From IMG/VR virus record IMGVR_UViG_2939152649_000005: DNA of 13,265 nt. One strand, given 5' to 3'. Position numbers and translations under genes: made by a program. A model generated the notes under the pieces. That model worked only from the letters and a program-made list of their open reading frames with translations, had not been told where the DNA came from and did not search any database. Below, piece after piece: positions 2,908 to 10,075 of this stretch (position 1 is its first letter; each line of letters starts with the position of its first letter). The stretch is from a virus. Lineage: Duplodnaviria; Heunggongvirae; Uroviricota; Caudoviricetes.

Positions 2908-3139
2908 ACTGAAATTTCACCACCATAACTTTGCTTGATTAATAACCAAATTACATGAATATTTTGGTTTGGGTCCGAATAACGGATACAAACCAGAACA
3001 GGACCTACCACCAGAACCGCTATTAGTTGTATCGAATTTGACACAATGCCCGCCCGCAGTAATCAAGCCGTCAAGCAAATATCGTTGTGCTGTTCATGAC
3101 ACACCTGATCCCTCAAGAATTGCTCACAGCGAGAAAAAT

Positions 3140-4195
3140 ATGGATACCCCGGACATAATTTCCGTACCAGAGGTCACTGCTGCGACAGAACCGCAGTCCT
3201 CTGCAGAATGCTTCACCTTTGGCGATCCCATTCCCGTACTGGACCGGCGCGAACTGCTGGACTATGTGGAATGCGCGCAGATGGATCGCTGGTATGAGCC
3301 GCCGGTGAGTTTTGCAGGGCTGGCACGTACCTACCGAGCAGCCGTACATCACAGTTCACCAATTGCCGTTAAGCGTGACATTCTCAGCAGTACCTACATC
3401 CCACACCGCCTGCTCAGTCAGCAGTCTTTTGCCCGTTTCGTTCAGGATTATCTGGTGTTTGGTAATGCCTATCTGGAAAAGCGTACTAACCGGCTGGGCG
3501 GCGTCCTCACACTGGAGCCAGCGCTGGCGAAATACACCCGGCGCGGCGTTGACCTGGAATCCTACTGGTTTGTTAACTATGGCCTGACAACGCAGCCTTA
3601 TGAGTTCACCAGAGGCAATATTTTTCACCTGATGGAACCGGATATTAACCAGGAAATTTACGGGCTGCCCGGCTACCTCTCCGCCATTCCGTCAACCCTG
3701 CTCAACGAGTCCGCAACGCTGTTCCGCCGGAAGTATTACATCAACGGCAGCCATGCGGGCTTCATCATGTACATGACCGACGCGGCGCAGAATCAGGAGG
3801 ATGTGAACAACATCCGCAAGGCAATGAAAAGCGCCAAAGGGCCGGGCAATTTCCGCAATCTGTTTATGTACTCACCCAATGGCAAAAAGGACGGCATCCA
3901 GATCATCCCGCTGTCAGAGGTGGCGGCGAAAGATGAGTTTCTGAACATCAAGAACGTGAGCCGTGATGACATGATGGCAGCGCACCGCGTGCCGCCGCAG
4001 ATGATGGGTATCATCCCCAGCAACACCGGCGGCTTTGGCGATGTGGAAAAGGCCAGCCGTGTTTTTGTCCGCAACGAACTGATGCCGCTGCAGAAGCGAC
4101 TGCAGGAGCTGAATAACTGGCTGGGCGAAGAAGTGATCTGCTTCGAGCCTTATTCTTTACAACTTGATGAAAGTGCTGATAGCAACAGGGGGTAA
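3140..4195 (+). CDS. Possible P2 gpQ-type phage portal protein (351 aa from the first ATG); the family assignment is tentative
   Basis: Long ORF with ordinary codon usage. The track ORF begins at a TTG at 2969; the first ATG is at 3140 (MDTPDIISVPEV...). Its size matches the ~340-350 aa I recall for P2 Q, and it is transcribed toward a structured candidate cos region, as P2 Q is. I cannot confirm the family from memory. Confidence 0.5.
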   Translation: MDTPDIISVPEVTAATEPQSSAECFTFGDPIPVLDRRELLDYVECAQMDRWYEPPVSFAGLARTYRAAVHHSSPIAVKRDILSSTYIPHRLLSQQSFARFVQDYLVFGNAYLEKRTNRLGGVLTLEPALAKYTRRGVDLESYWFVNYGLTTQPYEFTRGNIFHLMEPDINQEIYGLPGYLSAIPSTLLNESATLFRRKYYINGSHAGFIMYMTDAAQNQEDVNNIRKAMKSAKGPGNFRNLFMYSPNGKKDGIQIIPLSEVAAKDEFLNIKNVSRDDMMAAHRVPPQMMGIIPSNTGGFGDVEKASRVFVRNELMPLQKRLQELNNWLGEEVICFEPYSLQLDESADSNRG

Positions 4196-4198
4196 TGT

Positions 4199-4561
4199 AT
4201 GGGATGGATCGGCGTTGATCTGGATGGCACGCTGGCGGTGTACCCGCCAGAGAGCGGGGCGCTAATAGGTGATGCCATTCCCGGCATGGCGGAAAGGGTC
4301 CGCAAATGGCACAAGGATGATATTGAAGTACGAATTTTTACCGTCCGGGCTGGTTCGCGTGCCGGAGTGAAGCAAGTTAAAGCCTGGTTGAAAGCCAATG
4401 AACTGCCGGACCTGATGGTGACGAACGTTAAAGACAGCGGCATGGTGGAATTATGGGATGACAGAGCGATACGTGTTATCCGTAATACCGGTTCAGTATG
4501 CGCCGGTTGCAACGGCACATCGCAGTTCCACCACCATTCAGGAGATTTCACCAACTGCTGA
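4199..4561 (+). CDS. Small HAD-superfamily-like protein (putative minimal phosphatase/nucleotidase) with a Cys/His-rich C-terminal tail
   Basis: ATG at 4199 is 3 nt after the upstream stop and is preceded by AGGGGG. The N-terminus MGWIGVDLDGTLA matches HAD motif I (hhhhDxDGT). Motif-II-like Thr in RIFTVRAG, downstream lysines, and motif-IV-like ELWDDRA occur with spacing compatible with a cap-less HAD fold. The tail is SVCAGCNGTSQFHHHSGDFTNC. Confidence 0.6.
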   Translation: MGWIGVDLDGTLAVYPPESGALIGDAIPGMAERVRKWHKDDIEVRIFTVRAGSRAGVKQVKAWLKANELPDLMVTNVKDSGMVELWDDRAIRVIRNTGSVCAGCNGTSQFHHHSGDFTNC

Positions 4562-4592
4562 GCCGGCAGGCATTCCGTTAACCATTACCTGA

Positions 4593-4633
4593 ACGCCTCA
4601 GCAGCATTCTGCGGGGCGTTAGCTTTATTTATG
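4593..4633 (+). terminator. Rho-independent terminator candidate downstream of the HAD-like gene
   Basis: AACGCCTCAGCAG-CATT-CTGCGGGGCGTT forms a ~12-bp stem (one bulge, one G-U pair) with a 4-nt loop, followed by AGCTTTATTTAT. Confidence 0.5.
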
Positions 4634-4863
4634 GCATGAACCATGCCACGGCACATGCGCCGCTCAGGTTGCCATTTCCCCCCTCTGCGCGCGCTGCCCC
4701 CCACGCCTGCCCGCTTCGCTTAACAGAATGGTTTTCATGCACCCCGTAAATCGCCTCAGGAGCCGCCACACAAGGGCTTTCACGTCAAAAATGATGCATG
4801 AGACTCATGCGTTTTCATGCGCCATAGACATGCACTCATGCGCTCTCAGGCCAGCCAGGAAAA

Positions 4864-4897
4864 AGGCGTAAAAAATCCCGGTGCCGGGCCGGGATTA
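4864..4897 (-). terminator. Rho-independent terminator for the minus-strand late operon (after the delta-like gene)
   Basis: Perfect 8-bp stem AATCCCGG/CCGGGATT with a 7-nt loop. On the minus-strand transcript the hairpin is followed directly by a U-run (UUUUUACGCCUUUU). It lies 20-50 nt beyond the stop of the 4917-5189 gene. Confidence 0.6.
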
Positions 4898-4916
4898 GGT
4901 AGGCGTTTTTTGCTAA

Positions 4917-5189
4917 TCAGACAGGGATTTGCTGGCGGCTTGATAACTTTGATGCAGAGCCATAGCGATTGAGCGTTTGCTGTTGTTTTTCCGGCATTTG
5001 TGCTTTGTCTGATTCCTGTTCATTGCGCCGGGGCTTCATAATTATCTTATCCACACTTTCCAGAGCGGTAAATGTGCAGGAACATTCAAGATTCTGGCAC
5101 TGATACCATGAGCGTTTAACCGACGGTGCTTCATAGGCGGTGGTTCTGGCGTGTGCAACGGTGCCGCATTCAGGACATTTCAGCGCCAT
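4917..5189 (-). CDS. Ogr/Delta-family zinc-finger late-gene transcriptional activator
   Basis: 90-aa protein MALKCPECGTVAHARTTAYEAPSVKRSWYQCQNLECSCTFTALESVDKII... has the CxxC...CxNxxC arrangement and the HART/YxCxN motifs I recall from P2 Ogr and P4 Delta. Its ATG overlaps the stop of the upstream gene (ATGA), indicating translational coupling. Confidence 0.85.
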   Translation of the reverse strand: MALKCPECGTVAHARTTAYEAPSVKRSWYQCQNLECSCTFTALESVDKIIMKPRRNEQESDKAQMPEKQQQTLNRYGSASKLSSRQQIPV

Positions 5190-5950
5190 CAGATACCCTC
5201 CATATCACGGTTACGTTTCTGCAGCTCTTCACGTTCCTGACGGATCTTCATTTTGTGAAGGGCCGCCGGTGACGGGATTTTGCTTAAATCGACACGAGCC
5301 GCATAATCCGGCGCAACGCCCGCCAGTTTAAACACAGGGTCCTGTTCCGGCATCGCAGTGTTAGCAAGAGCCGGTTTGGTGATATGTTTGTGAATAAAGT
5401 CTTTCAGCAGTGTGTCCGGGTCATTAACTGAATTCACCACCCCCACAACGGCACTGGCTTCCCGCCCCATTGTGGTTTTGAGCAGGCTCAGTGTCTGGAT
5501 TAACGCCTTACCATGCGCCTGCATGAAGTCTTCCCAGATTTGCTTTGCGCGAATTTCCACAAGGGTGTTATGTGCGCTGATATACTGCCCGGCTAATTTC
5601 CCGGCTTCCTGCGGTAATAAGGCATTTTCGCTTTCCTGAGCTGCCAGCAGTTCATCAAAATCCTCAAGCGTTTCTCGTCCCAGCGCAATTTCCGTGCGCA
5701 GTTTTTTCATTTCCTTTGAGACTACGCCCTGACTTTCACGAAACAGCGTGCGCCACTCCTCATTCAGCGCGTTCGTCGTGGCTTCCATTTCAGCCCGGCG
5801 CTGGCGGATTGTCGCAATATTATCCGCTGCCGCTTTCTGCCGACGACGTGCTTCAAGCCATGCGCTTCTGGCTGTGTTCAGGGTTTCCATTGCCTGCTGC
5901 GTTACAGCCGGAAAAGTGGAAAGGTTGTTATTCTCTGCGGTGTTGTTCAT
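5189..5950 (-). CDS. Psu/Sid-family protein (P4 polarity-suppression / capsid-size-determination-like), 253 aa
   Basis: ATG at 5950 preceded by AGGAG. Segments QQAMETLNTARSAWL and EDFMQAHGKAL resemble regions of P4 Psu as I recall it (QQAFDTCQNNKAAWL, NDFMQQHGTAL). The protein is ~60 aa longer than P4 Psu, closer in length to Sid, and sits directly upstream of the delta-like gene as sid does in P4. Confidence 0.65.
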   Translation of the reverse strand: MNNTAENNNLSTFPAVTQQAMETLNTARSAWLEARRRQKAAADNIATIRQRRAEMEATTNALNEEWRTLFRESQGVVSKEMKKLRTEIALGRETLEDFDELLAAQESENALLPQEAGKLAGQYISAHNTLVEIRAKQIWEDFMQAHGKALIQTLSLLKTTMGREASAVVGVVNSVNDPDTLLKDFIHKHITKPALANTAMPEQDPVFKLAGVAPDYAARVDLSKIPSPAALHKMKIRQEREELQKRNRDMEGI

Positions 5951-5984: not shown

Positions 5985-6040
5985 TGTGTCGTGACTGACA
6001 CAAGCGCACTATCGGCGCTCAGTGTGTGGTGGCTGGCACA
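5985..6040 (-). promoter_or_regulatory. Candidate Ogr/Delta-dependent late promoter region upstream of the Psu/Sid-like gene: two TGT-N12-ACA dyads
   Basis: TGT-N12-ACA at 5985-6002 (inside the palindrome TTGTGTC-gtgact-GACACAA) and at 6023-6040. The second is centred ~80 nt upstream of the ATG, compatible with the -55 position described for P2/P4 late promoters. The motif is short, so chance is not excluded. Confidence 0.35.
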
Positions 6041-9023: not shown

Positions 9024-9403
9024 ACTTCCCCCTGATACAGCGAAACACCCGAGCTGCAGAAGTCATCAAATGCCGCCGGAAGTGTGCGGTACAGCTCCGC
9101 CATCACTTCACAGCCGCGCACAGTCAGTACCGGTGGCGCGGTCAGCAATGATGGCTCCAGCATGTCAGTCAGCAGCGCCAGTGCAGCCGCTGCTCCCTGT
9201 GCTTCGCCATATTCGTTAATCAGTGCGCACTCGATATGCAGGGCAATGGCCATTTCAATACGTTCAACCGTCAGGCTGTGCGGACCATAGTGATCGCAGC
9301 CGGTTTCGGTCAGCGCTTTCTGGCGCCAGGCCGATGCAATAGCCCGCCGGTAAAGCGCAGTGGTCATTTCTGCCGGAAAAATAGAAACCTGCGGCTGGTT
9401 CAT
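9020..9403 (-). CDS. Hypothetical protein (127 aa), last of four small coupled ORFs upstream of the primase gene
   Basis: Start overlaps the stop of the 9400-9684 ORF; stop overlaps the primase start. Same strand and operon as the primase. No motif recognised. Confidence 0.55.
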   Translation of the reverse strand: MNQPQVSIFPAEMTTALYRRAIASAWRQKALTETGCDHYGPHSLTVERIEMAIALHIECALINEYGEAQGAAAALALLTDMLEPSLLTAPPVLTVRGCEVMAELYRTLPAAFDDFCSSGVSLYQGEV

Positions 9404-9684
9404 TGGGTGCCTCCTTCAATCAGTTCGCAACTGTGCGCAATATCCGTCAAATCTGCCCGCAGGTACTCCATCAGCGCGGCGATGCCTGGCGCACATCCTG
9501 CATCCAGCGTTCCGCCCTGCGAGGGGTATTCAGAAAAGAGAAGCTGCAACATGTCGCAGGCCTTTCTGGCGCGGGCCAGCTTTCCGAAACCGTCCTCTGA
9601 CAACCCATACGCAAAAGCACCGCTATTGTGTTTTTCAGGCAAAGCGTGGCCCTGAGCACCGTTGTGCCCGTTTGAAATATTCAT
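9400..9684 (-). CDS. Hypothetical protein (94 aa) in the replication operon
   Basis: ATG at 9684 preceded by GGAG at about 9 nt; stop overlaps the start of the next ORF. No motif recognised. Confidence 0.55.
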   Translation of the reverse strand: MNISNGHNGAQGHALPEKHNSGAFAYGLSEDGFGKLARARKACDMLQLLFSEYPSQGGTLDAGCAPGIAALMEYLRADLTDIAHSCELIEGGTQ

Positions 9685-9715
9685 CGTGGATTACTCCGTT
9701 TTCAGCGGTGTTTTG

Positions 9716-10075
9716 TCAGAGAAACTTTGAATAGTGACTGTCGTCAGGTTCAGCAGAACGCCGTATGCTGCGCTCCCGCCAGCGGGTAAATACCACCGAC
9801 GGATGCAGCGTCAGCGAGCCAGAGCCGCTACCCCCCGCGGGAGCTGGCGAAGGTTTAAAGAGCGGCGCATCAAACAGGCGCGTATACCGCTGTTCAAACC
9901 ATGCCAGAGGGCAGGAAGAAAGCTGGTTGTCGCTGTCATGACGTATCAACACTTCACAGCTGAATTCAGGATTAACCAGCGCCACGGAGGGAGACGCTTC
10001 AATTAGTCGGATGATTGTTACGGTCCAGCCACGTTCATGCTGCCAGCGTTCGCCGGGTTGCGGATAATTACGCAT
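9716..10075 (-). CDS. Hypothetical protein (119 aa from the ATG at 10075) in the replication operon
   Basis: The track ORF is extended to 10105 by an alternative start. The ATG at 10075 is preceded by GGAGG (GGAGGTGAACATG) and overlaps the stop of the upstream 58-aa ORF (ATGCGTAA). Confidence 0.55.
   Translation of the reverse strand: MRNYPQPGERWQHERGWTVTIIRLIEASPSVALVNPEFSCEVLIRHDSDNQLSSCPLAWFEQRYTRLFDAPLFKPSPAPAGGSGSGSLTLHPSVVFTRWRERSIRRSAEPDDSHYSKFL

Follow-up and report, generated by a model that had tools for sequence, protein, structure and literature searches.

The question raised by this locus is what occupies the 355-bp gap at positions 4562–4916 of the window (the whole stretch of 13,265 nucleotides that was analysed). 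The gap is bounded by the stop of a 120-aa ORF at 4561 (plus strand) and by the stop of an ogr/delta gene at 4917 (minus strand), that is, by convergent genes, as an earlier reading made from the sequence alone (the sequence-only reading) had described. Our comparisons indicate that it is very probably the cos (packaging) region of a P4-like satellite prophage of ~10.6 kb located at a tRNA-Leu, and that its portal side adjoins DNA captured from a P2-like helper phage.

The gap lies in a P4-like satellite

Next to the tRNA-Leu, the window contains a satellite gene set composed of int, AlpA, a TOPRIM/DUF927 primase, a Sid-like protein and ogr/delta. Near-full-length matches to the window were found in complete E. 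coli genomes (megablast), and the RefSeq order of these matches, starting from the tRNA-Leu, is integrase, AlpA-type regulator, Icd-like, DUF5375, TOPRIM/DUF927 primase, capsid morphogenesis (Sid-like) and ogr/delta zinc-finger protein. Pfam concurs with this annotation for delta, Sid and the integrases. The core genes of P4-like satellites (integrase, AlpA, alpha-type primase, Sid, delta and Psu) are present except that the window copy has no separate psu, which its relatives do have; published schemes for these satellites tolerate one absent core gene (PMC13586616). The following features of this backbone and its surroundings are referred to below.

4917–5189, minus strand: ogr/delta-type late-gene activator, final gene of the satellite late operon (Pfam Ogr_Delta, E = 1e-16; RefSeq annotation of near-identical loci)
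1701–2651 and 350–1563, strand not given: truncated P4-type integrase and IS3 element of a second, tandem island, with an ALIL pseudoknot at 1166–1282

In the window, delta directly follows sid (4917–5950), and in five other satellites (L002 and L004–L007) a separate psu of 183 aa lies between these genes. Both the late-operon order (sid-psu-delta) and the orientation of the early block differ from those of P4. On the other side, positions 2814–2829 carry TGGTGCGAAGGCCGGA, a copy, with one base deleted, of the tRNA-Leu 3' end (a sequence that also forms the P4 attP core). This copy is found 163 bp upstream of the second, truncated P4-type integrase gene, and it therefore marks the far end of the satellite and the start of the second, tandem island, which is interrupted by the IS3 element.

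Terminators close the gap on both sides

The sequence-only reading had placed a strong plus-strand terminator and a minus-strand terminator in the gap, and a small perfect palindrome between them. All three features were found, the palindrome one base away from the position first given (~4634–4648); none of the features of that reading was off by more than one base.

4592–4620, plus strand: Rho-independent terminator hairpin AACGCCTCAGCAGCATTCTGCGGGGCGTT of the portal-orf120 unit, with a U-rich tail to ~4632 (fold)
4870–4896, minus strand: Rho-independent terminator of the sid-delta late operon (inverted repeat; an 8-bp G+C stem, AAUCCCGG/CCGGGAUU, then a U run)
4633–4647, no strand: small palindrome GGCATGAACCATGCC (fold −8.8 kcal/mol, z = −2.59)

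The plus-strand hairpin is followed by AGCTTTATTTAT and has a predicted stability of −18.6 kcal/mol (z = −3.06), which was not reached by any of 200 shuffled sequences. In P2-like phages a homologous terminator, with the tail TTCTTTTTT, follows the portal gene; the similarity includes a 25-nt match (96%) to Yersinia phage MLG42, and the hairpin was also aligned with the prophage of E. coli ECONIH5, so that it corresponds to the terminator of the helper portal operon. The fold of the minus-strand terminator was no better than that of shuffled sequences (62 nt tested, z = −1.18), and its sequence is conserved across the satellite family. Together, the two terminators close the two converging transcription units. 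Both were overlooked by a simple consensus scan for promoters and terminators, whose loop and tail criteria they did not satisfy; the only structure that it flagged was another, small hairpin, GCATGAGTCTCATGC, discussed below.

The palindrome belongs to a stretch of 66 bp between the plus-strand terminator and the cos core for which no phage counterpart was found. As a candidate functional site it was rejected: it is broken in satellite L151 (GGCATGAACCTTACC) and absent from the phage homologues, and it is probably of no importance.

The gap contains a 55-bp core homologous to P2-family cos sites

A P2/P4-type cos site had been called tentatively in the gap, with alignment to the P2 and P4 cos regions suggested as a check. 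When the joined genome ends of P4, P2 and 186 were aligned with the minus strand of the gap, similarity to these regions was found at 4687–4741, with 37/55 identical positions to both P2 and P4, which supports the call. The G/C-rich tract that had also been pointed out is present; in this alignment it falls on the cos junction and corresponds to the 55-bp P2-family cos core.

4687–4741, minus strand: P2/P4-family cos core, formed by TGCATGAAAACC, 36 nt and CGCGCGC (37/55 ungapped to P2 and P4; 38/55 to the Fels-2/RE-2010 type)
4730–4741, minus strand: TGCATGAAAACC box, the outer left block of the core and a fourth (T)GCATG box (found independently in P2, P4 and 186)
4697–4716, minus strand: central block and start of the cohesive-end segment, AAGCGGGCA-GGCGTGGGGGG (alignments with P4, P2 and 186)
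4671–4714, strand not given: G/C-rich tract
4671–4686, minus strand: semi-conserved element AGAGGGGGGAAATGGC on the portal side of the core, similar in P2-like phages and some satellites (alignments)

On the minus strand, the core of the window reads TGCATGAAAACC-ATTCTGTTAAGCG-AAGCGGGCA-GGCGTGGGGGG-CAG-CGCGCGC, and that of P4 reads TGCATTAAAACC-GCCCCGCA-AAGCGGGCG-GGCGAGGCGGGG-AAAGCAC-CGCGCGC. That P2-family phages and P4 have such a 55-bp core in common is established in earlier work (PMC5694545; PMC9594776; both cite Ziermann and Calendar 1990). The outer blocks, TGCAT(G/T)AAAACC and (C/T)GCGCGC, lie exactly 36 nt apart at 4687–4741 (minus strand); between them are the central block, AAGCGGGC(A/G), and a G+C-rich segment starting with GGCG(A/T)GG. 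The site is also found where the end of the late operon adjoins variable cargo, since the delta stop is at 4917 and the backbone homology ends at 4680–4689. These alignments show that the segment 4687–4741 is homologous in sequence to the cos core common to P2-family phages and P4.

The element on the portal side of the core has the counterparts CAACGGGGTGAAATGGTGAA in MLG42 and ECONIH5, and CCAGAGGTGG in 186. In a short-query BLAST against phage genomes, the core matched the cos position of Yersinia phage MLG42 (E = 8e-6) as well as Klebsiella and Salmonella P2-like phages, and these matches sit between the DinI/replication gene (gpA) and the portal gene, the place where cos is expected. The similarity emerged only with a 74-nt query and E values up to 10; blastn of positions 4400–5000 against the same type of database at the default threshold gave no match, because the similarity of the cos sites is too short and diverged.

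The constancy of the frame was evaluated by scanning IMG/VR for the two outer boxes with a spacer of 28–44 nt allowed (a frame of 47–63 bp). The spacer was exactly 36 nt, that is, a 55-bp frame, in 119/123 matches, and in the remaining four, which have this frame too, a GCGCGCGC run makes the reading start two bases early. The presence of the TGCATGAAAACC box in this set carries no weight, since the search pattern required it. The right-hand GCGCGC box is degenerate in many members of the satellite family.

(T)GCATG boxes hold fixed positions beside the core

CATGC-type repeats had been noticed in the gap from the letters alone. They are present, with three 18-nt copies detected by a repeat finder within 4723–4851 (4723–4740, 4803–4820 and 4834–4851), and they correspond to the (T)GCATG boxes of the cos region.

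4796–4841, minus strand: (T)GCATG box block, with direct repeats at 4829–4834, 4815–4820 and 4805–4810; proposed terminase recognition sites

The three main boxes have start-to-start spacings of 13 and 10 nt and are located 69–93 bp from the core. Further copies are an extra one at 4836–4841, an inverted one at 4795–4801, and the fourth that opens the core. Within the 355 bp, GCATG/CATGC occurs nine times, seven of them in one orientation, where the frequency in the remainder of the window predicts 0.69 (Poisson P ~5e-8); any other 355-bp stretch outside 4200–5300 contains at most four.

To place these boxes relative to the core, we surveyed 111 distinct cos flanks from IMG/VR, including 81 phage and 10 satellite flanks. 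Leaving aside the core start, which is fixed by the search pattern, the only forward-strand box positions occupied in at least 40% of the 81 phage flanks were −95/−94, −82/−81 and −72/−71, a conservation that is partly ancestry given that these flanks are related by descent. The same three positions are occupied in the 10 satellite flanks, and an inverted copy occurs at −8/−7 in the phage flanks. In P2, P4 and 186 the spacings are 12–13 and 10 nt. The boxes are also kept in the satellites of Scandinavium and Pseudocitrobacter, whose delta and Sid proteins are 60–71% and 53–85% identical, respectively, to those of the window. According to the literature, helpers and satellites have no homology in common except cos, and yet the positions of the boxes are conserved in both, which argues that the boxes belong to the packaging signal. 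Longer P4 cos flanks have been reported to increase cosmid transduction more than 1000-fold (PMC9594776). Judging from these positions, the TGCAT boxes are probably the sites of the DNA-recognition subunit of the terminase.

Two other roles for the repeats were weighed. They could serve the transcription of the delta operon as a back-up terminator or attenuator, belong to a small RNA, or be bound by a transcription factor. On the minus strand, a hairpin, GCATGAGTCTCATGC, followed by ATCATTTTTG, does resemble a terminator (−6.7 kcal/mol, z = −3.35), and in P4 the stem of the psu terminator is built from two boxes. However, the hairpin partner, the inverted copy at 4795–4801, is absent from the phages, and the positions of the boxes with respect to the cos core are kept in P2-like phages that have different neighbouring genes and transcription units. 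The consensus scan found no promoter-like site in the gap, and Rfam gave no match there (whole window at gathering scores, gap at E values up to 5), which argues against a known structured RNA. A role in transcription rather than packaging is, in our judgement, quite unlikely.

It is far less credible that the repeats act as replication-origin iterons for the satellite primase, or that another DNA-binding protein of the satellite recognises them. Clustered direct repeats about one helical turn apart are typical of origins, and the P4 ori and crr have such repeats. The P4 origin, however, is elsewhere, upstream of and overlapping the 5' end of sid (9086–9809), with crr beyond the alpha gene, and the boxes are common to helper phages that use another replication protein. 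The P4 type-1 iteron, TGTTCACC, is absent from the gap, and the origin reading was rejected. Recognition of the boxes by the terminase thus remains our preferred reading.

The centre of the core is displaced in this satellite family

In the canonical sites of the IMG/VR set, AAGCGGGCR/GGCGWGGCGGGG always occupies one register, with the 19-mer starting 17 nt after AAAACC. In contrast, the central block of the window, AAGCGGGCA/GGCGTGG, sits 5 bp toward the portal side, nearer the GCGCGC box. The displacement is made up of a duplication of AAGCG (+5 nt) on the left and the loss of 5 nt from the 19-mer, so that the 55-bp frame stays intact. The canonical register is typical of all the phage members seen; it is not clearly a defining trait, since accepted members vary in the 19-mer, and for this reason we classed the site of the window as a family variant. 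The sequence-only reading did not recognise the 19-nt P2/P4 cohesive end because of this 5-bp displacement.

4694–4712, minus strand: predicted cohesive-end segment, with GGGCAGGCGTGGGGGGCAG or GGCGTGGGGGGCAG as register candidates

The displacement is common to all of the distinct satellite flanks in the family alignment (18/18). In IMG/VR, the 13 exact matches to AAGCGAAGCGGGCAGGCGTG are all satellites with delta ~200 bp away, and none is a phage. A scan of species-representative genomes for AAGYGAAGCGGGCAGGCG returned mostly chance matches in G+C-rich genomes; the full cos context was present in 6/103 matches, and these six are satellites from Citrobacter (two genomes), Enterobacter, Pseudocitrobacter, Scandinavium and a record labelled Pantoea stewartii. 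In IMG/VR and the species-representative genomes, then, the displaced form was found only in satellites, and the displaced cos centre appears to be private to this family.

For the cohesive end, two predictions can be made. If the frame is preserved, the segment would be the 19-mer GGGCAGGCGTGGGGGGCAG (4694–4712), which is 12/19 identical to that of P2; if the sequence sets the register, it would contain the 14-nt block GGCGTGGGGGGCAG at 4694–4707. Depending on the register, the identity to the P2 19-mer is 12–13/19, and the predicted end is either a different 19-mer or a shorter overhang of 14 nt, with neither placed above the other. The canonical sequence has a 5-nt periodicity (AAGCG GGCGG GCGAG GCGGG). 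This makes slippage by one 5-nt unit a plausible source of the shift, with similarity kept in both registers.

An alternative explanation is that the displaced block is simply damage, and that the gap holds a decayed cos relic in a domesticated satellite family that is no longer packaged. Several observations would agree with this: the limited identity of the cohesive-end segment to P2, the absence of the displaced form from autonomous phages, the degenerate right-hand box of many relatives, and the state of the window copy, which is without psu and flanked by the IS3 element and the truncated second integrase. However, the two 5-nt changes compensate exactly and keep the 55-bp frame, which is unexpected from random decay. 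The displaced form and the upstream boxes also persist across genera despite the divergence of delta and Sid mentioned above, and 16% of the complete E. coli genomes carry the family, whose int, primase, sid and delta genes are intact. We consider a relic improbable, and favour a packaging site whose centre has shifted. For such a site, the compatibility of the helper terminase with the displaced form is assumed, as no autonomous phage is known to carry this form.

One further locus (L017; IMGVR_UViG_2923272612_000005, ~3190–3245) has a displaced core of the satellite type, but its sequence has been replaced leftward from a point ~25 nt before the core. It has neither TGCAT boxes nor a nearby delta, and a primase fragment and an integrase are close. 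This locus may be a recombinant or a remnant, and offers a natural test of whether the TGCAT boxes are needed.

These results explain why the textbook 19-mer does not retrieve the sites of a satellite family that about one-sixth of the complete E. coli genomes carry. Moreover, a fixed 55-bp frame with a shifted centre, together with TGCAT boxes at fixed positions, provides testable hypotheses on what a P2-type terminase reads.

A helper portal module adjoins the core

To the left of the core, the window changes in character, as seen when the gap was compared by BLAST with E. coli genomes. Positions 4680–4916 were matched at 86–92% identity in 862/5426 genomes (16%) and positions 4562–4680 in only a handful, so that the homology of the satellite backbone ends at 4680–4689. 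Beyond the core, the cargo differs in each relative (retron, SIR2, AAA ATPase and others), and a variable hotspot directly beside cos has been published for P4-like satellites (PMC9122126; PMC8628076; PMC13586616). In the window, this place is taken by the following module.

3140–4561, plus strand: helper-type cargo, acquired from a P2-like phage, with a full-length P2-family portal gene (3140–4195) and the 120-aa ORF (4199–4561)

The portal ORF is annotated as a phage portal protein; its product is 93.5% identical to the MLG42 portal and 61% identical to P2 gpQ, and it matches phrog_68 over its full length (E = 1e-171). Positions 4150–4618 have 99.6% nucleotide identity to a P2-like prophage of E. 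coli ECONIH5; this complete prophage presents, in order, the terminase, the portal, the 120-aa protein (WP_001547634.1), the same terminator, and a canonical cos of its own. The ~20-nt element beside the core (4671–4686) is likewise common to the window and P2-like phages. By these similarities, the segment 4562–4686 and the genes to its left (portal, 120-aa ORF and their terminator) are helper-phage DNA. No remnant of a terminase gene was found upstream of the portal gene.

The 120-aa ORF lies between the portal gene and its terminator in P2-like prophages. It had no Pfam or PADLOC match, and the cargo as a whole had no PADLOC match and is not a recognisable defence system. In PHROG, this ORF weakly matched families that bear the names phosphoheptose isomerase and polynucleotide kinase. 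Large phages infecting Rhizobium, Ralstonia and Burkholderia, which are unrelated, encode homologues with 30–45% identity.

The window can thus be read as two genome ends that meet at cos: on the cosL side that of a helper, running from cos to the portal, and on the cosR side that of a satellite, with its late operon. Recombination at or near cos would give this structure. The remark in the sequence-only reading that the portal lies on one side of such a junction and the end of the late operon on the other holds literally here, with delta as the neighbouring late gene in the absence of psu. It does so because the DNA on the portal side was captured from a P2-like phage. Rousset et al. (2022; PMC9122126) put forward cos-mediated exchange between helpers and satellites only as a speculation, and the helper portal segment joined at cos is a worked example of it. 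For annotation, these comparisons settle where the cos core lies, where the cargo starts and where a P4-like satellite truly ends on the left.

The portal-bearing arrangement is present in ~4–6 of the 5426 complete E. coli genomes. Four satellite copies of the portal (window/L001, L029/L239 and L151) have a private N-terminus in common; their dS is up to 0.23 and dN/dS is ~0.08, which suggests that the portal gene is maintained by selection inside the satellites. One of these, L239 (NZ_CP046558.1, 464001–472000), is a near-identical portal-bearing satellite, with a portal 97.7% identical in amino acids, in a record labelled Pantoea stewartii ATCC 8199. Its presence in a chromosome with this label would mean wide transfer, unless the record is mislabelled.

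Upstream of the portal gene there are two TGT-N12-ACA dyads (3028–3045 and 3086–3103), where the chance of a single one in 310 bp is ~0.08. A similar pair precedes sid (5985–6002 and 6023–6040), and the block conserved among portal-bearing satellites begins at ~3024–3026, a few bases from the first dyad. TGT-N12-ACA is the activator motif of P2/P4 late promoters, and the dyads upstream of the portal could form a delta/Ogr-activated promoter for portal-orf120.

It is conceivable, though on balance we doubt it, that this lineage is acquiring packaging hardware and an identity of its own, with private cohesive ends and a helper portal that was captured by recombination at cos, is self-expressed and under purifying selection, and has a private N-terminus and an upstream dyad block. 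If this were true, a P4-like satellite would supply a virion protein, which current descriptions deny to these elements; they are described as being without packaging or virion proteins (PMC8628076).

Proposed packaging mechanism

From the arrangement of these features, packaging may be envisaged as follows. Upon induction of, or infection by, a P2-like helper, the helper terminase (gpM + gpP) would recognise the TGCAT boxes, one inside the core and three ~70–90 bp away, in a layout that recalls the cosB of lambda. Staggered nicks made by the terminase within 4689–4712 would produce G+C-rich 5' cohesive ends. The satellite genome, once excised and circularised, would then be packaged into small capsids shaped by Sid. 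The flanking terminators would keep converging transcription out of the region bound by the terminase.

Comparison with known systems

The closest reference is the cos of P4 (NC_001609, end junction, psu/gop). As in the window, it is located at the end of the late operon and beside variable cargo, and the two sites have in common the 55-bp frame with the TGCATKAAAACC, AAGCGGGCR/GGCGWGG and YGCGCGC blocks (37/55 ungapped) and TGCAT boxes ~70–95 bp away on the late-operon side. Unlike P4, the window has its central block 5 bp off, and the 19-mer of P2 and P4, GGCGAGGCGGGGAAAGCAC, is not present as such. Two boxes of P4 double as the stem of the psu terminator, whereas in the window delta has a terminator hairpin distinct from the boxes. 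The gene order also differs: delta is last, psu is absent and the early block is inverted.

The cos sites of P2, 186, Fels-2/RE-2010, MLG42 and the ECONIH5 prophage have the same 55-bp frame, outer boxes and TGCAT positions as the window. On the portal side, the P2-like (Peduoviridae) phages and the window also coincide in the ~20-nt element adjacent to the core, the portal-operon terminator, orf120 and the portal gene. These phages differ from the window in having the canonical register (for example, GGCGTGGCGGGGATACGAG) and in what lies on the other side of cos, which is cargo, DinI and the replication gene in the phages and the satellite late operon in the window.

The cos of lambda (cosN and the R sites of cosB) has no sequence similarity to the window and serves as an analogy of mechanism only. 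Binding of the boxes by P2 gpM is putative, and P2 is reported to package from circular monomers. The likeness is in the layout, a nicking site flanked by several short boxes in the same orientation and spaced by about one helical turn. The R sites of lambda are bound by the small terminase subunit.

As in the P4-like hotspots (Rousset et al. 2022, PMC9122126; Moura de Sousa and Rocha 2022, PMC8628076), the backbone in the window ends at cos and unrelated cargo follows. Unlike the published hotspots, the cargo is a helper-type portal with a 120-aa ORF and not a recognisable defence system. A cos at the gap is an ordinary and expected part of an element of this known kind, with a layout already published by Rousset et al. 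(2022); modestly unusual are the displaced cos centre that seems private to the family and the captured helper portal module beside cos.
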